A stretch of 17,310 nt of DNA from a virus (taxonomy: Duplodnaviria; Heunggongvirae; Uroviricota; Caudoviricetes): IMG/VR virus record IMGVR_UViG_2563366958_000013; one strand, 5' to 3'. Shown piece after piece: positions 3,738-17,006 of the stretch. Each line of letters starts with the position of its first letter. Positions within the stretch are counted from its first letter, which is position 1. A model generated the notes under the pieces. That model did not search any database and was not told where the DNA came from. It saw nothing but the letters and a program-made list of their open reading frames with translations. The translations under genes and the position numbers were made by a program.

Positions 3738-6291
3738 ACCGGTAGGCGATCTGGTCGTTGATTTGAGTCTGGATGCGGCCAGATTTGACGAGCAGATGGC
3801 CAGAGTCAGGCGTCATTTTTCCGGTACGGAAAGTGATGCGAAAAAAACAGCGGCAGTCGTTGAACAGTCGCTGAGCCGACAGGCGCTGGCTGCACAGAAA
3901 GCGGGGATTTCCGTCGGGCAGTATAAAGCCGCCATGCGTATGCTGCCTGCACAGTTCACCGACGTGGCCACGCAGCTTGCCGGCGGGCAAAGTCCGTGGC
4001 TGATCCTGCTGCAACAGGGGGGGCAGGTGAAGGACTCCTTCGGCGGGATGATCCCCATGTTCAGGGGGCTTGCCGGTGCGATCACCCTGCCGATGGTGGG
4101 GGCCACCTCGCTGGCGGTGGCGACCGGTGCGCTGGCGTATGCCTGGTATCAGGGCAACTCAACCCTGTCCGATTTCAACAAAACGCTGGTCCTTTCCGGC
4201 AATCAGGCGGGACTGACGGCAGATCGTATGCTGGTCCTGTCCAGAGCCGGGCAGGCGGCAGGGCTGACGTTTAACCAGACCAGCGAGTCACTCAGCGCAC
4301 TGGTTAAGGCGGGGGTAAGCGGTGAGGCTCAGATTGCGTCCATCAGCCAGAGTGTGGCGCGTTTCTCCTCTGCATCCGGCGTGGAGGTGGACAAGGTCGC
4401 TGAAGCCTTCGGGAAGCTGACCACAGACCCGACGTCGGGGCTGACGGCGATGGCACGCCAGTTCCATAACGTGACGGCGGAGCAGATTGCGTATGTTGCT
4501 CAGTTGCAGCGTTCCGGCGATGAAGCCGGGGCATTGCAGGCGGCGAACGAGGCCGCAACGAAAGGGTTTGATGACCAGACCCGCCGCCTGAAAGAGAACA
4601 TGGGCACGCTGGAGACCTGGGCAGACAGGACTGCGCGGGCATTCAAATCCATGTGGGATGCGGTGCTGGATATTGGTCGTCCTGATACCGCGCAGGAGAT
4701 GCTGATTAAGGCAGAGGCTGCGTTTAAGAAAGCAGACGACATCTGGAATCTGCGCAAGGATGATTATTTTGTTAACGATGAAGCGCGGGCGCGTTACTGG
4801 GATGATCGTGAAAAGGCCCGTCTTGCGCTTGAAGCCGCCCGAAAGAAGGCTGAGCAGCAGACTCAACAGGACAAAAATGCGCAGCAGCAGAGCGATACCG
4901 AAGCGTCACGGCTGAAATATACCGAAGAGGCGCAGAAGGCTTACGAACGGCTGCAGACGCCGCTGGAGAAATATACCGCCCGTCAGGAAGAACTGAACAA
5001 GGCACTGAAAGACGGGAAAATCCTGCAGGCGGATTACAACACGCTGATGGCGGCGGCGAAAAAGGATTATGAAGCGACGCTGAAAAAGCCGAAACAGTCC
5101 GGCGTGAAGGTGTCTGCGGGCGATCGTCAGGAAGACAGTGCTCATGCTGCCCTGCTGACGCTTCAGGCAGAACTCCGGACGCTGGAGAAGCATGCCGGAG
5201 CAAATGAGAAAATCAGCCAGCAGCGCCGGGATTTGTGGAAGGCGGAGAGTCAGTTCGCGGTACTGGAGGAGGCGGCGCAACGTCGCCAGCTGTCTGCACA
5301 GGAGAAATCCCTGCTGGCGCATAAAGATGAGACGCTGGAGTACAAACGCCAGCTGGCTGCACTTGGCGACAAGGTTACGTATCAGGAGCGCCTGAACGCG
5401 CTGGCGCAGCAGGCGGATAAATTCGCACAGCAGCAACGGGCAAAACGGGCCGCCATTGATGCGAAAAGCCGGGGGCTGACTGACCGGCAGGCAGAACGGG
5501 AAGCCACGGAACAGCGCCTGAAGGAACAGTATGGCGATAATCCGCTGGCGCTGAATAACGTCATGTCAGAGCAGAAAAAGACCTGGGCGGCTGAAGACCA
5601 GCTTCGCGGGAACTGGATGGCAGGCCTGAAGTCCGGCTGGAGTGAGTGGGAAGAGAGCGCCACGGACAGTATGTCGCAGGTAAAAAGTGCAGCCACGCAG
5701 ACCTTTGATGGTATTGCACAGAATATGGCGGCGATGCTGACCGGCAGTGAGCAGAACTGGCGCAGCTTCACCCGTTCCGTGCTGTCCATGATGACAGAAA
5801 TTCTGCTTAAGCAGGCAATGGTGGGGATTGTCGGGAGTATCGGCAGCGCCATTGGCGGGGCTGTTGGTGGCGGCGCATCCGCGTCAGGCGGTACAGCCAT
5901 TCAGGCCGCTGCGGCGAAATTCCATTTTGCAACCGGAGGATTTACGGGAACCGGCGGCAAATATGAGCCAGCGGGGATTGTTCACCGTGGTGAGTTTGTC
6001 TTCACGAAGGAGGCAACCAGCCGGATTGGCGTGGGGAATCTTTACCGGCTGATGCGCGGCTATGCCACCGGCGGTTATGTCGGTACACCGGGCAGCATGG
6101 CAGACAGCCGGTCGCAGGCGTCCGGGACGTTTGAGCAGAATAACCATGTGGTGATTAACAACGACGGCACGAACGGGCAGATAGGTCCGGCTGCTCTGAA
6201 GGCGGTGTATGACATGGCCCGCAAGGGTGCCCGTGATGAAATTCAGACACAGATGCGTGATGGTGGCCTGTTCTCCGGAGGTGGACGATGA
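3730..6291 (+). CDS. H: tail tape measure protein H
   Basis: 853-aa product, the same length as lambda gpH; N-terminus MAEPVGDLVVDLSLDAARFDEQMARVRRHF and Gly-rich C-terminal region; start overlaps the T stop (ATGGCTGA), RBS AGGAGGAG upstream. Confidence 0.92.
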   Translation: MAEPVGDLVVDLSLDAARFDEQMARVRRHFSGTESDAKKTAAVVEQSLSRQALAAQKAGISVGQYKAAMRMLPAQFTDVATQLAGGQSPWLILLQQGGQVKDSFGGMIPMFRGLAGAITLPMVGATSLAVATGALAYAWYQGNSTLSDFNKTLVLSGNQAGLTADRMLVLSRAGQAAGLTFNQTSESLSALVKAGVSGEAQIASISQSVARFSSASGVEVDKVAEAFGKLTTDPTSGLTAMARQFHNVTAEQIAYVAQLQRSGDEAGALQAANEAATKGFDDQTRRLKENMGTLETWADRTARAFKSMWDAVLDIGRPDTAQEMLIKAEAAFKKADDIWNLRKDDYFVNDEARARYWDDREKARLALEAARKKAEQQTQQDKNAQQQSDTEASRLKYTEEAQKAYERLQTPLEKYTARQEELNKALKDGKILQADYNTLMAAAKKDYEATLKKPKQSGVKVSAGDRQEDSAHAALLTLQAELRTLEKHAGANEKISQQRRDLWKAESQFAVLEEAAQRRQLSAQEKSLLAHKDETLEYKRQLAALGDKVTYQERLNALAQQADKFAQQQRAKRAAIDAKSRGLTDRQAEREATEQRLKEQYGDNPLALNNVMSEQKKTWAAEDQLRGNWMAGLKSGWSEWEESATDSMSQVKSAATQTFDGIAQNMAAMLTGSEQNWRSFTRSVLSMMTEILLKQAMVGIVGSIGSAIGGAVGGGASASGGTAIQAAAAKFHFATGGFTGTGGKYEPAGIVHRGEFVFTKEATSRIGVGNLYRLMRGYATGGYVGTPGSMADSRSQASGTFEQNNHVVINNDGTNGQIGPAALKAVYDMARKGARDEIQTQMRDGGLFSGGGR

Positions 6292-8693: not shown

Positions 8694-11600
8694 ATGGGTA
8701 AAGGAAGCAGTAAGGGGCATACCCCGCGCGAAGCGAAGGACAACCTGAAGTCCACGCAGTTGCTGAGTGTGATCGATGCCATCAGCGAAGGGCCGGTTGA
8801 AGGTCCGGTGGATGGATTAAAAAGCGTGCTGCTGAACAGTACGCCGGTGCTGGACACTGAGGGGAATACCAACATCTCCGGTGTCACGGTGGTGTTCCGT
8901 GCCGGTGAGCAGGAGCAGACACCGCCGGAGGGGTTTGAATCCTCCGGCTCCGAGACGGTGCTGGGTACGGAAGTGAAATATGACACGCCGATCACCCGCA
9001 CCATTACGTCTGCAAACATCGACCGTCTGCGCTTTACCTTCGGTGTACAGGCACTGGTGGAAACCACCTCAAAGGGTGACAGGAATCCGTCGGAAGTCCG
9101 TCTGCTGGTTCAGATACAACGTAACGGTGGCTGGGTGACGGAAAAAGACATCACCATTAAGGGCAAAACCACCTCGCAGTATCTGGCCTCGGTGGTGGTG
9201 GGTAACCTGCCGCCGCGCCCGTTTAATATCCGGATGCGCAGGATGACGCCGGACAGCACCACAGACCAGCTGCAGAACAAAACGCTCTGGTCGTCATACA
9301 CCGAAATCATCGATGTGAAACAGTGCTACCCGAACACGGCACTGGTCGGCGTGCAGGTGGACTCGGAGCAGTTCGGCAGCCAGCAGGTGAGCCGTAATTA
9401 TCATCTTCGCGGGCGCATTCTGCAGGTGCCGTCGAACTATAACCCGCAGACGCGGCAATACAGCGGTATCTGGGACGGAACGTTTAAGCCGGCATACAGC
9501 AACAACCCGGCCTGGTGTCTGTGGGATATGCTGACCCACCCGCGCTACGGCATGGGGAAACGTCTTGGTGCGGCGGATGTGGATAAATGGGCGCTGTATG
9601 TCATCGGCCAGTACTGCGACCAGTCAGTGCCGGACGGTTTTGGCGGCACGGAGCCGCGCATCACCTGTAATGCCTGGCTGACCACGCAGCGTAAGGCGTG
9701 GGATGTGCTCAGTGATTTCTGCTCGGCGATGCGCTGTATGCCGGTATGGAACGGGCAGACGCTGACGTTCGTGCAGGACCGACCATCAGATAAGGTGTGG
9801 ACCTATAACCGCAGTAATGTGGTGATGCCGGATGATGGCGCGCCGTTCCGCTACAGCTTCAGCGCCCTGAAGGACCGCCATAATGCCGTTGAGGTGAACT
9901 GGATTGACCCGAACAACGGCTGGGAGACGGCGACAGAGCTTGTTGAAGATACGCAGGCCATTGTCCGTTACGGTCGTAATGTCACGAAGATGGATGCCTT
10001 TGGCTGTACCAGCCGGGGGCAGGCACACCGCGCCGGGCTGTGGCTGATTAAAACTGAACTGCTGGAGACGCAGACCGTGGATTTCAGCGTGGGTGCTGAA
10101 GGGCTTCGCCATGTACCGGGCGATGTCATTGAAATCTGCGATGATGACTATGCCGGTATCAGCACCGGTGGTCGCGTGCTGGCGGTGAACAGCCAGACCC
10201 GGACGCTGACGCTCGACCGTGAAATCACGCTGCCATCCTCCGGTACCACGCTGATAAGCCTGGTTGACGGAAGTGGCAATCCGGTCAGCGTGGAGGTTCA
10301 GTCCGTCACCGACGGACTTAAGGTGAAAGTGAACCGGGTTCCTGACGGCGTTGCAGAATACAGTGTGTGGGGGCTGAAGTTGCCGACGTTGCGTCAGCGC
10401 CTGTTCCGCTGTGTGAGTATCCGGGAGAACGATGACGGTGCGTATGCCATCACCGCCGTGCAGCATGTACCGGAAAAAGAAGCCATCGTGGATAACGGGG
10501 CGCACTTTGACGGCGACCAGAGCGGCACGGTGAATGGTGTCACGCCGCCAGCGGTGCAGCACCTGACCGCCGAAGTCACCGCAGACAGCGGGGAATATCA
10601 GGTGCTGGCGCGCTGGGACACGCCGAAGGTGGTGAAGGGCGTGAGCTTCCTGCTCCGTCTGACCGTAACAGCGGATGACGGCAGTGAGCGGCTGGTCAGC
10701 ACGGCCCGGACGGCGGAAACCACTTACCGCTTCAGGCAGCTGGCGCTGGGGCGTTACACGCTGACGGTCCGGGCGGTAAATGCCCGGGGACAGCAGGGCG
10801 ATCCGGCGTCGGTATCGTTCCGGATTGCCGCACCGGCAGCACCGTCGAGGATTGAGCTGACGCCGGGCTATTTTCAGATAACCGCCACGCCGCATCTTGC
10901 CGTTTATGACCCGACGGTACAGTTTGAGTTCTGGTTCTCGGAAAAGCGGATTACCGATATCAGGCAGGTTGAAACCACAGCCCGCTATCTTGGTACGGCG
11001 CTGTACTGGATAGCCGCCAGTATCAATATCAAACCGGGCCATGATTATTACTTTTATATCCGCAGTGTGAACACCGTTGGCAAATCGGCATTCGTGGAGG
11101 CTGTCGGTCAGGCGAGCGATGATGCGGAAGGTTACCTGGATTTTTTCAAAGGCCAGATAACCGAATCCCATCTCGGCAAGGAGCTGCTGGAAAAAGTCGA
11201 GCTGACGGAGGATAACGCCAGCAGACTGGAGGAGTTTTCGAAAGAGTGGCAGGACGCTAACGATAAGTGGAATGCCATGTGGGGCGTCAAAATTGAGCAG
11301 ACCAAAGACGGCAAACATTATGTCGCGGGTATTGGCCTCAGCATGGAGGACACGGAAGAAGGCAAGCTGAGCCAGTTTCTGGTTGCCGCTAACCGTATCG
11401 CGTTTATTGACCCGGCAAACGGGAATGAAACGCCGATGTTTGTGGCGCAGGGCAATCAGATATTTATGAACGACGTGTTCCTGAAGCGCCTGACGGCCCC
11501 GACCATTACCAGTGGTGGAAATCCACCGGCATTTTCCCTGACATCAGACGGAAAGCTGACCGCTAAAAATGCGGATATCAGTGGCAGAGTGAATGCGAAC

Positions 11601-12107
11601 GCCGGGACGCTCAACAATGTCACGGTAAATGAAAACTGTACGATTAAGGGCATGCTGGAGGCGACTCAGGTCAGAGGTGACTTCGTTAAAGCTGTATCCA
11701 AATCATTCCCGAAACAGGCTGGTACGTGGGGTAACACGGAAACACCAAACGGGACGGTTACAGTCACCATCAGCGATGATCATAACTTTGACCGTCAAAT
11801 CATTATTCCGCCCATTATCTTTAACGGAATAGCGTATAGCGATCCGGGAAGTGGTAATAACCCGGGAGGTACAAGATACACGGGTTATGGTTTTGAAGTT
11901 CGCAAAAACGGTGTATTAATCGCATCCAGAGAAACTAAAGGGGCCATTCCCGGTAGCTACAGTGCGGTTATTGATATGCCGAGTGGCAGGGGAAGCGTCA
12001 CTCTGGAGTTTAAGGTTTTCCATAAAGGCAATCAGTGGGCAGGTAATATCACCGACTGTACGGTGATTGTGACCAAAAAAGCCGCTTCCGGCATCAGTAT
12101 TCGTTGA
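8694..12107 (+). CDS. J: tail tip attachment / central tail fiber (host specificity) protein J
   Basis: 1137-aa product; the first ~1000 residues ([34 protein letters not shown]...) closely match lambda gpJ as I recall it; the last ~130 residues look divergent. RBS GAGGAA upstream. Confidence 0.92.
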
Positions 12108-12176: not shown

Positions 12177-12776
12177 ATGCGTAAACTTTATGCCGCCATT
12201 TTGTCCGCAGCCATTTGTCTGGCCGTATCCGGTGCGCCTGCATGGGCATCTGAACATCAGTCCACGCTGAGCGCGGGGTATCTTCATGCCCGGACCAACG
12301 TTCCCGGCAGTGATGATCTGAACGGGATTAACGTGAAATACCGTTATGAGTTTACGGATACGCTGGGGCTGGTGACGTCATTCAGCTATGCAGGAGACAA
12401 GAATCGCCAGCTGACCCGTTACAGCGATACCAGCTGGCATGAAGATTCCGTGCGTAACCGCTGGTTCAGCGTGATGGCGGGGCCGTCTGTGCGCGTGAAT
12501 GAATGGTTCAGCGCGTATGCGATGGCGGGTATGGCTTACAGCCGTGTTTCGACTTTTTCCGGGGATTACCTTCGCGTAACTGACAACAAGGGGAAAACGC
12601 ACGATGTGCTGACCGGAAGTGATGACGGTCGCCACAGCAACACGTCTCTGGCGTGGGGGGCTGGCGTGCAGTTTAACCCGACCGAATCCGTGGCCATTGA
12701 TATTGCTTATGAAGGTTCTGGCAGTGGTGACTGGCGCACTGACGGTTTCATCGTGGGTGTCGGTTATAAATTCTGA
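12177..12776 (+). CDS. lom: outer membrane beta-barrel protein Lom (Ail/Lom/PagC/OmpX family), lysogenic-conversion moron
   Basis: 199-aa product MRKLYAAILSAAICLAVSGAPAWASEHQSTLSAGYLHARTNVPGSDDLNGINVKYRYEF...GFIVGVGYKF matches lambda Lom; signal peptide with AWA-SE cleavage context, C-terminal aromatic residue (F) typical of OMP barrels; RBS GAGAGG. Confidence 0.9.
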   Translation: MRKLYAAILSAAICLAVSGAPAWASEHQSTLSAGYLHARTNVPGSDDLNGINVKYRYEFTDTLGLVTSFSYAGDKNRQLTRYSDTSWHEDSVRNRWFSVMAGPSVRVNEWFSAYAMAGMAYSRVSTFSGDYLRVTDNKGKTHDVLTGSDDGRHSNTSLAWGAGVQFNPTESVAIDIAYEGSGSGDWRTDGFIVGVGYKF

Positions 12777-12840: not shown

Positions 12841-15237
12841 ATGGCAGTAAAGATTTCAGGTGTACTGAAAGACGGCACAGGAAAACCGGTACAGAACTGC
12901 TCAATCCAGCTGAAAGCAAAACGTAACAGCACCACGGTGGTAGTGAACACGCTGGCCTCAGAAAATCCGGATGAAGCCGGGCGTTACAGTATGGATGTTG
13001 AGTATGGCCAGTACAGCGTTATCCTGCTGGTTGAAGGTTTTTCGCCTTCACATGCCGGGACCATCACCGTGTATGAAGATTCTAAGCCGGGGACGCTGAA
13101 TGATTTTCTCGGTGCCATGACGGAAGATGATGTCATGCCGGAGGCATTGCGTCGTTTTGAGGAAATGGTGGAAGAAGCGGCACGCAACGCTGAAGCCGCC
13201 TCTCAGAGCGCAGCGGCGGCAAAGAAATCCGAAACTGCAGCGGCATCATCGAAGAACGCGGCGAAAACCTCAGAAACGAATGCAGCTAATAGTGCACAGG
13301 CGGCAGCGACCTCAAAGACTGCATCGGCAAACTCCGCGACAGCAGCCAAAAAATCAGAAACCAACGCGAAAAATAGCGAGACAGCCGCAAAGACGAGCGA
13401 AACCAACGCAAAGTCCAGCCAGACGGCAGCGAAAACCAGCGAAACGAATGCCAAAGCCAGTGAAACTGCGGCAAAAAACAGCCAGGTTGCAGCAGCCCAA
13501 AGCGAGAGCGCGGCAGCCGGTTCTGCGACTTCAGCAGCTGGATCAGCAACTGCTGCGGCTAACAGCCAGAAAGCTGCGAAGACGAGTGAAACTAACGCAA
13601 AGTCCAGCCAGACGGCAGCGAAGACCAGCGAAACGAATGCCAAAGCCAGCGAAACTGCGGCGAAAAACAGTCAGGATGCAGCAGCCCAAAGCGAGAGTGC
13701 TGCAGCTGGTTCTGCAAGCGCGGCGGCTGCTTCTGCCACTGCATCAGCCAACAGTCAAAAAGCAGCAAAAACCAGTGAAACCAATGCAAAGACAAGCGAG
13801 ACTGCAGCGGCGAACTCGGCGAAAGCATCGGCAGCAAGCCAGACAGCAGCTAAAGCAAGTGAAGACGCAGCCAGAGAGTATGCAAGTCAGGCAGCAGAGC
13901 CGTATAAATATGTCTTACAGCCACTGCCTGATGTGTGGATACCGTTTAACGATTCACTGGATATGATTACGGGCTTTTCGCCGTCATATAAAAAAATTGT
14001 TATTGGTGATGATGAAATAACGATGCCTGGCGACAAGGTTGTTAAGTTTAAACGCGCATCAACTGCCACATATATCAATAAATCAGGCGTATTTAGTGTT
14101 GCTAAAATTGATGAGCCACGATTTGAAAAAGAAGGTTTATTGATTGAAGGACAGCGCACTAACTATTTTGTTAAATCCAATACTCCCGCTGAATGGACGA
14201 GTACCAGCAATATCGATAAAACTAATAATGGTGTTGATGAATTTGGTTTTTCATATGCCAAAATGCGAACAAAAGATAATATGACAGGACAATCATCTGC
14301 ACTTAGTCTGCATACATGCAGTGCATCCCGGGGGATTGATGTTTGTGGCGATAATAAGTATTGCACTGTTTCATGCAGGGTTAAAGCTCCTGATGGTCTT
14401 CGTTGTCGTTTGCGTTTTGAAAAATACGATGGGTCGGTTTATACATTTTTAGGAGATGCTTATTTAACTTTCGGAACTCTGATAATAGAAAAAACTGGCG
14501 GAGCAGCCAATAGAATAGCAGCTACTGCAACTAAAGATCCGGTTACAGGGTGGATTTTCTATGAGGCAACTATAGAAGCTGTTGAAGGTGAAACCTTAAT
14601 TGGCGCAATGATTCAGTATGCGCCGAAAAAAGGTGGTATAACTGAAGCGGGAGATTATATTTACCTTGCAACACCACAATTTGAAAACGGCGGATGTGCT
14701 TCATCTTTTGTTATTACGACAACTGCACCCGCAACCCGCTCCAGTGATATGGTGACGATCCCAACTGAAAATAATATCTATAATAGACCGCTTACGTGTC
14801 TTGTCGAGGTTAATAGAAATTGGGGCGATATTCCTCCTAATGTAGCACCGCGTATTTTTGATTTTTCTGGTGTGCCACCTATTGAGTCAATTACATACGC
14901 TTTTAACACAACTGAGAAATATTACGGTCAGCTTTATATGCAAACTTATAAAGCGTCGACAAGTACTTACGTTTCTAGTGTGTTTGCTGGTCGAGCTGAT
15001 GTTCGAAAATTCATTGGTGGTTTTAATATTTATTCTGATGGTACTAAACGAGTAGTTTCTAACGGTGAGGCTACTAAAACTATGAAAACGGAGTGGACGG
15101 GCGTAAAAACACGGACCTTTATTCGAATTGGAGGTCAAGCCACATCGGGAACTCGTCATCTATTCGGCCATTTGAGAAATCTTCGTCTCTGGCATAAAGA
15201 ATTAACTGATGCGCAAATGGGGGAGAGTATTAAATGA
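12841..15237 (+). CDS. stf: side tail fiber protein, chimeric: lambda Stf-like N-terminus, Ala/Ser/Thr-rich repeat shaft, non-lambda C-terminal domain with a LamG/ConA-like signature
   Basis: 798-aa ORF; N-terminus MAVKISGVLKDGTGKPVQNCSIQLKAKRNSTTVVVNT...SKPGTLNDFLGAMTEDDVMPEALRRFEEMVEEAARNAEAA matches lambda Stf as I recall it. The central region is tandem repeats (AAKTSETNAKSSQT...). The C-terminal ~440 aa are AT-rich DNA and end ...GHLRNLRLWHKELTDAQMGESIK, which resembles the terminal motif of Laminin_G_3/ConA-like jelly-roll domains. RBS GGGGGGA upstream. Confidence 0.8.
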   Translation: MAVKISGVLKDGTGKPVQNCSIQLKAKRNSTTVVVNTLASENPDEAGRYSMDVEYGQYSVILLVEGFSPSHAGTITVYEDSKPGTLNDFLGAMTEDDVMPEALRRFEEMVEEAARNAEAASQSAAAAKKSETAAASSKNAAKTSETNAANSAQAAATSKTASANSATAAKKSETNAKNSETAAKTSETNAKSSQTAAKTSETNAKASETAAKNSQVAAAQSESAAAGSATSAAGSATAAANSQKAAKTSETNAKSSQTAAKTSETNAKASETAAKNSQDAAAQSESAAAGSASAAAASATASANSQKAAKTSETNAKTSETAAANSAKASAASQTAAKASEDAAREYASQAAEPYKYVLQPLPDVWIPFNDSLDMITGFSPSYKKIVIGDDEITMPGDKVVKFKRASTATYINKSGVFSVAKIDEPRFEKEGLLIEGQRTNYFVKSNTPAEWTSTSNIDKTNNGVDEFGFSYAKMRTKDNMTGQSSALSLHTCSASRGIDVCGDNKYCTVSCRVKAPDGLRCRLRFEKYDGSVYTFLGDAYLTFGTLIIEKTGGAANRIAATATKDPVTGWIFYEATIEAVEGETLIGAMIQYAPKKGGITEAGDYIYLATPQFENGGCASSFVITTTAPATRSSDMVTIPTENNIYNRPLTCLVEVNRNWGDIPPNVAPRIFDFSGVPPIESITYAFNTTEKYYGQLYMQTYKASTSTYVSSVFAGRADVRKFIGGFNIYSDGTKRVVSNGEATKTMKTEWTGVKTRTFIRIGGQATSGTRHLFGHLRNLRLWHKELTDAQMGESIK
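13387..13764 (+). repeat. two tandem ~189-bp (63-codon) imperfect direct repeats inside stf, with a partial third copy starting at 13765
   Basis: Unit beginning gc(a/g)aagacgag(c/t)gaaac(c/t)aacgcaaagtccagccagacggcagcgaa at 13387 recurs at 13576 with about 90% identity; protein repeat AAKTSETNAKSSQTAAKTSETNAKASETAAKNSQ(V/D)AAAQSESAAAGSA... Shorter ~14-codon sub-repeats extend from ~13200 to ~13860. Confidence 0.8.
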
Positions 15238-15381: not shown

Positions 15382-15390
15382 AAGATGGCG
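15382..15390. repeat. IS1 target site duplication, left copy (AAGATGGCG)
   Basis: 9 bp immediately 5' of IS1 IRL, identical to 16159-16167. Confidence 0.9.
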
Positions 15391-15445
15391 GGTGATGCTG
15401 CCAACTTACTGATTTAGTGTATGATGGTGTTTTTGAGGTGCTCCA

Positions 15446-15721
15446 GTGGCTTCTGTTTCTATCAGCTGTCCCTCCTGTTCAGCTACTGACGGGGTGGTGC
15501 GTAACGGCAAAAGCACCGCCGGACATCAGCGCTATCTCTGCTCTCACTGCCGTAAAACATGGCAACTGCAGTTCACTTACACCGCTTCTCAACCCGGTAC
15601 GCACCAGAAAATCATTGATATGGCCATGAATGGCGTTGGATGCCGGGCAACAGCCCGCATTATGGGCGTTGGCCTCAACACGATTTTACGTCACTTAAAA
15701 AACTCAGGCCGCAGTCGGTAA
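15446..15721 (+). CDS. insA: IS1 protein InsA (transposition inhibitor / N-terminal part of InsAB' transposase)
   Basis: 91-aa product [91 protein letters not shown], the IS1 InsA sequence with zinc-finger Cys motif; begins at IS1 nt 56. Confidence 0.95.
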
Positions 15722-16143
15722 CCTCGCGCATACAGCCGGGCAGTGACGTCATCGTCTGCGCGGAAATGGACGAACAGTGGGGCTATGTCGGGGCTAAATC
15801 GCGCCAGCGCTGGCTGTTTTACGCGTATGACAGGCTCCGGAAGACGGTTGTTGCGCACGTATTCGGTGAACGCACTATGGCGACGCTGGGGCGTCTTATG
15901 AGCCTGCTGTCACCCTTTGACGTGGTGATATGGATGACGGATGGCTGGCCGCTGTATGAATCCCGCCTGAAGGGAAAGCTGCACGTAATCAGCAAGCGAT
16001 ATACGCAGCGAATTGAGCGGCATAACCTGAATCTGAGGCAGCACCTGGCACGGCTGGGACGGAAGTCGCTGTCGTTCTCAAAATCGGTGGAGCTGCATGA
16101 CAAAGTCATCGGGCATTATCTGAACATAAAACACTATCAATAA
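15640..16143 (+). CDS. insB: IS1 InsB' reading frame; expressed as InsAB' transposase by -1 frameshift at the A6C motif (15697-15703)
   Basis: -1 frame ORF relative to insA, product ...[55 protein letters not shown]... matches IS1 InsB; the ORF-track start at 15640 is the frame opening, not necessarily a used start; slippery TTAAAAAACTC present. Confidence 0.9.
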
Positions 16144-16158
16144 GTTGGAGTCATTACC

Positions 16159-16167
16159 AAGATGGCG
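16159..16167. repeat. IS1 target site duplication, right copy (AAGATGGCG)
   Basis: 9 bp immediately 3' of IS1 IRR, identical to 15382-15390. Confidence 0.9.
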
Positions 16168-16301: not shown

Positions 16302-17006
16302 ATGGCTACATCGACAGTAATTCCTGATGACATCAAAACGCTAAAGGGAGATGTCAGTAAGGCAAAGGAAGATATTTCCTCAATTAACGTAAAAGTATCA
16401 ACGCTTCAGACTGATATGGACAGTGCAAAGCAGGATATCAGTACCAGATACACAAAAACAGAAGTGGATAATAAGCTGAAAAACAAAGTGGAAGTGAACG
16501 ATCTGGAAAGTGGTCGTTATGGCGGAGATTTTTACCCGCTGACTGGCCGTGAAGCGTTTTATTTATGGGGATTGGGCACAACTACAGCGGCGGCAAATCT
16601 TTATCTTAATCCTGACCCTGCAATTTCGTCTGTGCTGCGGTCAACATCGTCTATCCGCTATAAACATTCAGTAGAGACGATAGATTCAGAGCACGCCGAT
16701 CTCATTTTCAGGATGCGCCCTGTGTGGTACAGGTCGCAATGCGAAAATGACAGGCGTGACTGGGGATTCTATGGATTGATTGCCGAGGAAGTAGGAGAAA
16801 TTGCCCCTCAGTTTGTTCACTGGCGACCAGCCAACGAAGATGATGCACCGGAAACCATTTCCAGCAATGGCCTTGTTGCCGAAGGTGTAATGTACGAACG
16901 TCTGGTTGTTCCACTGATTCACCATATCCAGAAACTGACTGAAAGAGTTGATGAACTTGAGTCAGAATTGAAGTTGTTATCAACTTCCCAAAGCGATATC
17001 GGATAA
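16302..17006 (+). CDS. tail-fiber-like protein: N-terminal coiled-coil segment plus C-terminal intramolecular chaperone (peptidase S74-like) domain
   Basis: 234-aa ORF with RBS GAGGAAG. N-terminus has heptad-like pattern (DIKTLKGDVSKAKEDISSINVKVSTLQTDMDSAKQDIS). C-terminal half carries SSIRYKHSVETID...ADLIFRMRPVWYRSQ...DWGFYGLIAEEVGEIAPQFV, which fits the S74 chaperone consensus as I recall it (SDxRxKxNI...L.PV.Y.W...GFIAQEV.EV.PE.V). Motif-level call only. Confidence 0.5.
   Translation: MATSTVIPDDIKTLKGDVSKAKEDISSINVKVSTLQTDMDSAKQDISTRYTKTEVDNKLKNKVEVNDLESGRYGGDFYPLTGREAFYLWGLGTTTAAANLYLNPDPAISSVLRSTSSIRYKHSVETIDSEHADLIFRMRPVWYRSQCENDRRDWGFYGLIAEEVGEIAPQFVHWRPANEDDAPETISSNGLVAEGVMYERLVVPLIHHIQKLTERVDELESELKLLSTSQSDIG

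Follow-up and report, generated by a model that had tools for sequence, protein, structure and literature searches.

The window, i.e., the whole stretch of 17,310 nucleotides that was analysed, belongs to an E. coli prophage and carries a lambda-type side tail fibre gene (stf), within whose shaft the repeats lie. The 798-residue product matches Pfam PF08400 'Prophage tail fibre N-terminal' over residues 1–131 (E = 1.2e-68, Pfam search) and phrog_1419 over its whole length. Moreover, residues 1–94 resemble the collar domain of lambda Stf (PDB 9e7m/9mgh, E = 5e-50), and the first 166 residues are ungapped and collinear with a lambda-like Stf. The order J, Ail/Lom, stf is the position of the gene in the lambdoid tail module, and it is identical in phage PhiR49_1, with whose Stf gene stf shares 99.1% identity. 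The genes and the main parts of Stf are the following, the limits of collar and linker being borrowed from the Ur-lambda cryo-EM paper (PMC12617516):

8694–12107, J, with gpJ domains present
12177–12776, Ail/Lom gene, between J and stf
12841–15237, plus strand, stf, side tail fibre gene, 798 aa (open reading frame, PF08400, collar match, phrog_1419)
12841–13143, plus strand, N-terminal collar (tail-attachment) domain, aa 1–91, and flexible linker, aa 92–101 (lambda-like collinearity)
13135–13893, plus strand, alpha-helical shaft (proximal coiled coil), aa 99–351 (heptads, AF2, likeness to lambda Stf)
13189–13881, plus strand, 33 strictly regular heptads, aa 117–347 (xxAAxxS, no phase break)
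13894–15237, plus strand, distal part of Stf, aa 352–798, presumed receptor-binding (NF048003, AF2)

The distal part is unrelated to that of lambda, with a beta-sandwich like that of head spike fibres in place of the gp37-like distal fibre of lambda. Its 447 residues have no Pfam match, and residues 434–634 correspond to NCBIfam NF048003 'phage head spike fiber domain' (E = 5.5e-15). For the distal half, AF2 is confident about a beta-sandwich alone (approximately residues 451–616) and gives low confidence for the most part (pLDDT 57), so that the weak Foldseek matches of this model to Pseudomonas phage tail fibres and lectin-like domains are only hints. No Tfa chaperone is encoded next to stf, the following open reading frame specifying a 93-aa phrog_1361 protein of unknown function. 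Therefore, since the distal part is unlike that of lambda and Tfa is not found downstream, membership in the lambda-type Stf proteins is limited to the N-terminal module and the rod. A possible family for fibre repeats, PF03406 'Phage tail fibre repeat', is not matched by the 798-aa protein (Pfam, E ≤ 0.01), in which one sub-threshold CarboxypepD_reg match is found beyond PF08400 at the same cutoff.

The shaft constitutes the proximal rod of a lambda-type Stf, an alpha-helical coiled coil with a heptad core of Ala and Ser. Its xxAAxxS heptads run uninterrupted, with Ala at one position in 30/33 and Ser at another, three (or four) residues away, in 32/33. The AF2 monomer is continuously helical at residues 99–231 and 238–351 (pLDDT ~70–84) and bends back into a hairpin at residues 232–237, a feature of a single-chain model that says little on the trimer; according to the Ur-lambda authors, AF3 gives the same hairpin artefact, and residues 102–393 of lambda Stf form the proximal coiled coil of a trimeric fibre (PMC12617516). 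As in lambda, the Ala/Ser heptad rod follows immediately after a short linker. However, the rod comprises 292 residues in lambda and ~253 here, and the 63-aa tandem duplication described below was not seen in lambda-like alleles (best lag-63 match 28–29/63). A further relative is DpK2, the depolymerase of Klebsiella phage RAD2 (PDB 7LZJ), whose residues 130–173 align with the heptads AAKTSETNAKSSQ (E ~1e-3), the motif AKTSE(T/D)NAKSS being common to the rod and the N-terminal region of DpK2. This region is described as an 'extended triple helical bundle' in a trimer, visible at low resolution only and outside the model, which comprises residues 191–906 (PMC8552709). Unlike the rod, the DpK2 bundle is a short part of a tailspike that has a beta-helix enzyme domain, and no 63-aa tandem duplication has been reported for it. 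By analogy with the trimers of lambda Stf and DpK2, the rod is probably trimeric with parallel chains.

At the DNA level, autocorrelation of the shaft peaks solely at multiples of 21 nt, so the basic period is the seven-residue heptad and not 42 nt. The ~42-bp sub-repeats put forward in an earlier note on this DNA do appear as period-42 arrays in Tandem Repeats Finder (TRF), but on an underlying period of 21 nt. Neither this period nor the coiled coil had been mentioned in that note. The repeats are arranged as follows:

13338–13482 and, as a second run, 13563–13664, plus strand, 42-nt (two-heptad) sub-repeats, AAKxSETNAKxSxT (TRF; repeat families D1 and D3)
13387–13575, plus strand, repeat unit 1 (u1), 189 nt = 63 aa = nine heptads (TRF, self-comparison)
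13576–13764, plus strand, repeat unit 2 (u2), 189 nt = 63 aa = nine heptads (TRF, self-comparison)
13765–13809, plus strand, partial third copy, unit head only, AKTSETNAKTSETA (end of the TRF array)
13405–13433, partner 13594–13622, plus strand, longest perfect u1/u2 match, 29 nt, candidate crossover site

The period-189 array spans 13375–13809 (2.3 copies, 83% matches, no indels, score 604). Thus, the two tandem units and the partial third that the earlier note had proposed are present, the latter with ~80% identity to the head of the unit across 42 nt (13765–13806). The identity of ~90% given there was too high: u1 and u2 are alike at 161/189 nt (85.2%) and at 58/63 residues, and the differing codons comprise 19 synonymous and five non-synonymous changes. 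This identity is unevenly distributed, with ~93% in the first 120 nt and ~72% in the last 69 nt. That the apparent repeat reflects nothing more than the bias in composition or heptads of a coiled coil rich in Ala, Ser, Thr, Lys, and Glu, with no DNA duplication behind it, would fit the low complexity of the entire shaft and the raised self-identity at every 21-nt multiple (45–53%), but this reading, which had been named as the one that could overturn the repeats, is practically untenable given a lag-189 self-match of 160/189 against 116 ± 4.3 (maximum 136) in 2000 shuffles of the 33 heptad (21-nt) blocks, 0/2000 of which reach 160, the sharing of the same codon by 39/58 of the identical u1/u2 residues against a background of 0.30, and the score and lack of indels of the TRF array.

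Of 5,426 complete E. coli genomes, 969 carry the two-copy form without gaps, and it is the standard form in IMG/VR, with at least 120 loci. Across 34 loci, u1 and u2 of the same gene are 83–89% identical, while the same copy is 93–100% identical between genomes; paralogues are less alike than orthologues in 34/34 loci, and 15 diagnostic sites are fixed differently between u1 and u2. Therefore, the duplication, a genuine tandem one of 63 aa (nine heptads), is old and stable. Moreover, at least 28 distinct two-copy haplotypes retain both units despite divergence of up to ~9%, and the two-copy state is kept across hundreds of diverged alleles. Allelic differences in the stf frame comprise 491 synonymous and 165 non-synonymous changes, and 81 of 119 polymorphic sites fall at third codon positions. 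Purifying selection maintains both copies, and the common allele is the one with two copies.

This constraint also bears on the long open reading frames that overlap the shaft on both strands, which the earlier note had already regarded as spurious by-products of the repeats:

13127–13966, plus strand, spurious 279-aa open reading frame, frame +1 of stf (no stop codons across the shaft)
13203–13643, minus strand, spurious open reading frame, 146 aa (same compositional cause)
13286–13549, minus strand, spurious open reading frame, 87 aa (same compositional cause)
13592–13837, minus strand, spurious open reading frame, 81 aa (same compositional cause)

T makes up 9% of the shaft, compared with 21% of the window, which leaves few stop codons in any frame and none across the shaft in frame +1. 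It is almost inconceivable that the 13127–13966 frame or those on the minus strand are real overlapping genes, despite their length (81–279 aa) and the RefSeq annotation of one such frame as a hypothetical protein, as the ratio of non-synonymous to synonymous allelic differences is 572:77 in frame +1 and 602:41 in the other plus frame against 165:491 in that of stf, and purifying selection is visible in the stf frame only. Hence, the earlier reading was borne out, and the minus-strand and +1-frame open reading frames are flagged here as annotation artefacts.

Comparison of related prophages, which the earlier note had suggested, revealed alleles with one, two, and three copies, i.e., copy number varies by whole units among related sequences. 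One-copy alleles occur in phage IdasGreatGrand, in four complete E. coli genome records, and at locus L209 (the labelled one-copy loci being L082, L084–L086, and L209). The single three-copy allele, L087 (IMG/VR record IMGVR_UViG_2541047862_000009), lies on one 8-kb draft contig, was found solely via a DNA pattern (two u1-type tails 189 nt apart), and is absent among the best matches listed in complete genomes. Pattern scans of IMG/VR gave one three-copy variant, one one-copy variant, and three of a re-duplicated type against the standard loci. Copy-number counts by megablast across complete E. coli genomes are unreliable, with overlapping pieces joined and two-copy loci reaching 100% coverage against one- or three-copy queries, and only listed single-piece rows were trusted. 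An artificial three-copy shaft retrieved two-copy proteins only from a collection of 5.8 billion proteins (59% coverage at ~97% identity, or gapped 100% coverage at 70–79%), a collection that probably hides rare variants through clustering at 90% identity and its many partial proteins. The shaft length classes all differ by whole heptads, with steps of two, four, and 15 heptads also occurring; the values 250 and 257 are one length class that the shaft-end heuristic divided by a Met residue. Indels that are not whole heptads (4, 5, and 41 aa) are found in a few alleles, most of these proteins being annotated as partial, and one class with a 152-aa shaft is devoid of any unit tail. In strain EFF60 (L083), an apparent length variant of +105 nt was rejected and excluded from the counts because the gene there is fragmented and pseudogenised; in the RefSeq genome of this strain, one open reading frame of the minus-strand kind is annotated as 'hypothetical protein'.

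The variants also carry recombinant junctions. At the diagnostic sites, one-copy alleles follow u1 in the 5' part and u2 at each of the 13 positions in the tail, and the middle unit of L087 is the reciprocal chimera, with u2 states at the 5' sites and a u1 tail, the head end of this signature consisting of two or three diagnostic sites only. Judged by their diagnostic sites, these junction units (u1 head with u2 tail, u2 head with u1 tail) correspond to the reciprocal products expected of unequal crossover. The 29-nt perfect match is the candidate crossover site because it lies inside the inferred breakpoint interval (unit positions 18–47) of three of four one-copy alleles. Copy numbers of one, two, or three among related prophages indicate that the fibre is now and then lengthened or shortened by recombination between copies, and the 63-residue steps anticipated by the earlier note are, thus, supported on evolutionary timescales by the copy variants and their reciprocal junctions.

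The second part of that expectation, length heterogeneity in a population, is not supported in the sense of rapid switching, as the longest perfect match between the units is 29 nt. This is near the minimum for RecA-dependent exchange, which mismatch repair would also disfavour. A fast contingency locus, in which slipped-strand or recombinational changes give mixed fibre lengths in one lysogen population or lysate, would account for the one-, two-, and three-copy alleles with their junctions and could draw on the homologous stf segments of each genome (median two, up to 11) as partners. However, it is very improbable: the units are 85% identical and not near-identical as expected of a VNTR or contingency locus, the two-copy haplotypes keep both units while diverging, variants are few in IMG/VR, and substitutions have built up even in the recombinant alleles since their formation, the pair of u1-type tails in L087 being 91% identical. 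The variation, as read from these alleles, appears slow and evolutionary.

It is somewhat less improbable, though still unlikely, that the one-copy form is ancestral and that two- and three-copy forms arose via separate duplications instead of crossover between u1 and u2. The one-copy pattern would look no different if the ancestral unit had been u1-like at its 5' sites and u2-like in its tail and the u1 tail had then diverged fast, and the shaft class devoid of unit tails also agrees with such an origin. Nevertheless, under this model 13 changes would have become fixed within the 69 nt of the u1 tail but hardly any within the 120 nt of the head, and the three-copy middle unit is an exact reciprocal chimera. 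Moreover, the one-copy alleles are not mutual nearest relatives: each has its closest match in a different two-copy allele (10–24 mismatches per 931 nt against 33–45 to the other one-copy alleles), a pattern of 'independent' deletions that mosaic recombination among stf alleles could mimic.

The preferred account, to which we assign a probability of about 85%, is that of an Stf coiled-coil rod with an old nine-heptad duplication and rare unequal recombination. The tandem duplication of a nine-heptad rod segment (63 aa, 189 nt) took place long ago. Since the unit consists of whole heptads, gain or loss of a copy preserves the coiled-coil register and would only lengthen or shorten the rod by ~9 nm (63 × ~0.15 nm). 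In turn, rare unequal homologous recombination in the well-conserved 5' two-thirds of the units may generate one- and three-copy alleles, and other whole-heptad indels arise as well. A doubtful extension is that the nine-heptad cassette serves as a length-tuning module, with selection setting rods of one, two, or three copies (~28, 37, and 47 nm). If so, copy number would track the reach past the O-antigen or capsule of the host, or relative to the central J fibre, and heptad quantisation would be an evolved design in which recombination adjusts reach and leaves attachment and receptor-binding modules undisturbed.

The feature is ordinary and well explained, copy change being an ordinary route of fibre-gene evolution, and the understanding of tail fibres is unchanged by it. 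Literature searches returned no specific description of Stf shaft repeats or of length variation in heptad steps. Streptococcal M proteins, coiled-coil surface fibres of tandem repeats, vary in size by whole repeats via intragenic homologous recombination; their repeats are almost identical, and change among them is frequent enough to be observed. They share with the Stf rod the alpha-helical coiled coil of tandem repeats and the whole-repeat steps, whereas the copies here are 15% diverged and change is rare. In phage tape-measure proteins, in-frame duplications and deletions scale tail length. These are likewise helical structural proteins in which in-frame gain or loss of repeats becomes physical length; however, they set the length of the tail tube during assembly, whereas here the rod itself would change. 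What the locus offers is a clean natural example of a phage fibre gene for which both reciprocal products of unequal crossover appear to be preserved in databases. The whole-heptad variation in rod length may also be useful for the engineering of Stf-type fibres, as the natural alleles suggest that ±63 residues are tolerated.

The shaft of Stf (aa 99-351, 13135-13893) contains two tandem units of 189 nt, u1 (13387-13575) and u2 (13576-13764), each encoding 63 residues and followed by a partial third copy (13765-13809) that consists of one more AAKTSETNAK-type head. Tandem Repeats Finder returns a period-189 array at 13375-13809 with 2.3 copies, 83% matches, no indels and a score of 604. The earlier note had described two such units as about 90% identical; the units are present, but in the register it used they share 161/189 nt (85.2%). 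This identity is uneven, being ~93% in the head (first 120 nt) and ~72% in the tail (last 69 nt), while 58/63 residues are identical at the protein level, with 19 synonymous and 5 non-synonymous codon differences. The sub-repeats of ~42 bp proposed in the same note are found as period-42 arrays at 13338-13482 and 13563-13664, but all autocorrelation peaks lie at multiples of 21 nt, and the true period is the heptad, which had been missed. A repeat arising from mere compositional bias is ruled out by shuffling of heptad blocks (33 blocks, 2000 shuffles, mean 116 ± 4.3 and best 136 of 189, the observed 160 being reached in 0/2000) and by shared codon choice, the same codon being used for 39/58 identical residues against a background of 0.30.

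The window corresponds to the tail-tip end of a lambdoid prophage and contains the following features:

8694-12107: gpJ
12177-12776: Ail/Lom gene
12841-15237, plus strand: 798-aa ORF (stf)
13894-15237: distal half of Stf, aa 352-798
15391-16158: IS1 element, 768 bp
15446-15721 and 15640-16143: insA/insB ORFs of IS1
16302-17006: 234-aa ORF with a Peptidase_S74 intramolecular-chaperone domain

The name stf given earlier to the 798-aa ORF is correct, because PF08400 'Prophage tail fibre N-terminal' (Pfam, E=1e-68) covers its residues 1-131, the collar domain of lambda Stf (PDB 9e7m/9mgh, E=5e-50) matches residues 1-94, a gene annotated as side tail fibre in Escherichia phage PhiR49_1 is 99.1% identical and the E. 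coli NCTC86 chromosome carries the shaft segment at 100% identity. The PHROG profile phrog_1419 (793 positions) aligns with Stf end to end. The neighbouring lom gene is one intact 199-aa ORF in the window and corresponds to two shorter annotated Lom CDSs in PhiR49_1 (5328-5941 of locus L001), where it is probably disrupted.

Residues 117-347 of Stf form 33 unbroken heptads, with Ala at one position in 30/33 and Ser three residues later in 32/33. The AlphaFold2 monomer is helical over residues 99-351 (pLDDT about 70-84), with one fold-back break, as is to be expected for an oligomeric rod of which only one chain enters the model. Alignment of the window protein to a lambda-like Stf is collinear and ungapped through residue 166, and cryo-EM/cryo-ET of Ur-lambda divides the trimeric lambda Stf fibre into a collar (1-91), a linker (92-101) and a 'proximal coiled-coil domain' (102-393) (PMC12617516). 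In the Klebsiella phage depolymerase DpK2, the motif AKTSE(T/D)NAKSS, also present in the window Stf, sits in the N-terminal region, for which an 'extended triple helical bundle' has been described. Taken together, these points identify the shaft as the proximal coiled-coil rod of Stf, which belongs to the same N-terminal/rod module family as that of lambda and works alike. Since the 189-nt unit comprises exactly nine heptads, gaining or losing one should, we infer, leave the coiled-coil register intact, and each unit would change rod length by ~9 nm of ~37 nm, at ~0.15 nm per residue.

Among relatives, the 861-nt segment 13100-13960 is ungapped, of the same length and 93-100% identical in 969/5,426 complete E. 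coli genomes. The match to residues 1-370 was measured in 80 IMG/VR loci: it is 1107-1110 nt long in 43, 1068-1071 nt in 11 and 792-795 nt in 21, and the remaining five are lambda-like and diverge after ~residue 160. Shaft lengths fall into classes of ~152, 194, 250/257 and 374 residues, all with unbroken heptad register. Alleles with one copy of the unit are exactly 63 residues shorter and occur in phage IdasGreatGrand, IMG/VR locus L209, four complete-genome records (H91, H101/H102, H108) and seven protein clusters. An IMG/VR pattern scan for two tail-specific motifs spaced exactly 189 nt apart found the standard u1-tail/u2-tail arrangement in at least 120 loci, two u1-type tails in a single locus (L087) and two u2-type tails in L088 and L089, with L210 of the same type. 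L087 has a complete 855-aa ORF with three units, at 2802, 2991 and 3180. A literature search found no paper on this duplication or its copy-number series, although variation of this kind is ordinary in fibre genes. Protein homologues (P0001-P0169) are mostly 'partial' proteins, 470-640 aa long, whose contigs end within stf downstream of the shaft; a possible cause is that several prophages per genome have the N-terminal half in common (median 2, up to 11 places), so that short-read assemblies would break there.

The origin of these variants can be read from 15 sites at which u1 and u2 carry different fixed states in 34 two-copy loci (28 distinct unit haplotypes); two of them are unit positions 3 and 18, and the other thirteen fall within positions 141-183. 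The three one-copy alleles scored (L082, L084, L086) are u1 at both 5' sites and u2 at all 13 tail sites, and the middle unit of L087 is the reverse, with u2 at the 5' sites and a u1 tail, between a pure u1 first unit and a pure u2 last unit. These chimeras are the pair of reciprocal products that an unequal crossover of u1 with u2 inside the conserved head would give. When each of the four one-copy alleles is fitted to its best two-copy 'parent', the breakpoint falls in unit interval 18-47 for three of them, an interval that coincides with the longest perfect u1-u2 identity (29 nt, 13405-13433/13594-13622); this hints weakly at a crossover there, because longer intervals are a priori likelier to hold a breakpoint. 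Each one-copy allele is nearest a different two-copy allele (10-24 mismatches/931 nt vs 33-45 to other one-copy alleles), which suggests recurrent events, a picture that mosaic recombination among alleles could also give. In L088, L089 and L210, both units bear the one-copy signature (u1-like 5' sites and u2 tail) and are 94-95% identical, suggesting that a one-copy allele was duplicated anew or that gene conversion took place.

Identity between u1 and u2 within a gene (0.83-0.89) is always lower than that of u1-u1 or u2-u2 between genomes (0.93-1.00), so the duplication is older than the divergence of the compared alleles, and the units show no general concerted evolution. Both copies are under purifying selection, with 491 synonymous vs 165 non-synonymous allelic differences in the stf frame and third codon positions making up 81/119 polymorphic sites. 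In the IMG/VR scans, only a small minority of loci have a variant copy number, and no such variant occurs among 23 evenly sampled high-identity rows or the best 30 matches to a three-copy query in complete genomes. Frequent switching within populations is expected to be unlikely, given 29 nt of perfect identity, 15% divergence and general knowledge of homeologous recombination, and the units are too diverged for the array to be a classical contingency repeat. The earlier observation and its main interpretation hold, the fibre-length steps of 63 residues being rare, evolutionary changes, represented by the one- and three-copy alleles, rather than a demonstrated mixture of lengths within a population.

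The shaft contains 9% T vs 21% in the window. T occurs in all three stop codons, which the complementary strand also reads as T-containing triplets; within the shaft, stops are absent from frame +1 and few in the minus frames. This scarcity explains four long ORFs in other frames:

13127-13966, plus strand: other-frame ORF
13203-13643, minus strand: other-frame ORF
13286-13549, minus strand: other-frame ORF
13592-13837, minus strand: other-frame ORF

They are spurious, as had been supposed, and in both plus-strand frames other than that of stf, non-synonymous allelic differences far outnumber synonymous ones (572:77 and 602:41). In the degraded stf of E. coli EFF60 (NZ_CP086678.1, locus L083), a RefSeq minus-strand 'hypothetical protein' (1607-1963) wholly within the T-poor shaft is such a spurious ORF annotated as a gene.

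The distal half of Stf is unlike that of lambda: no Pfam domain was found in it, NCBIfam NF048003 'phage head spike fiber domain' matches aa 434-634, and no tfa-type chaperone gene follows stf in the window. A low-confidence AF2 model gives a beta-sandwich. Its best Foldseek matches are weak and comprise tail fibres of Pseudomonas phage Pa193/E217 and lectin-like domains (BoNT Hc, CBM40). A 93-aa ORF (phrog_1361, function unknown) begins at 15234, where it overlaps the stop codon of stf, and is intact in PhiR49_1 and interrupted here by IS1, which is flanked by a 9-bp target-site duplication (AAGATGGCG, 15382-15390 and 16159-16167); if its product is needed for fibre assembly, the side fibre of this prophage may be non-functional. 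The 234-aa ORF matches only the last ~240 positions of phrog_3299 (1147-1384 of 1385) and has the appearance of a free-standing C-terminal fibre module encoded downstream of stf. Many relatives, both phages and genomes, match the stf query only to nt 888 or ~1287, and the same shaft is joined to differing distal domains (e.g., the 250-aa class ends ...RIAEDAADPASVPP). The rod may therefore serve as a conserved linker at which recombination exchanges receptor-binding modules.
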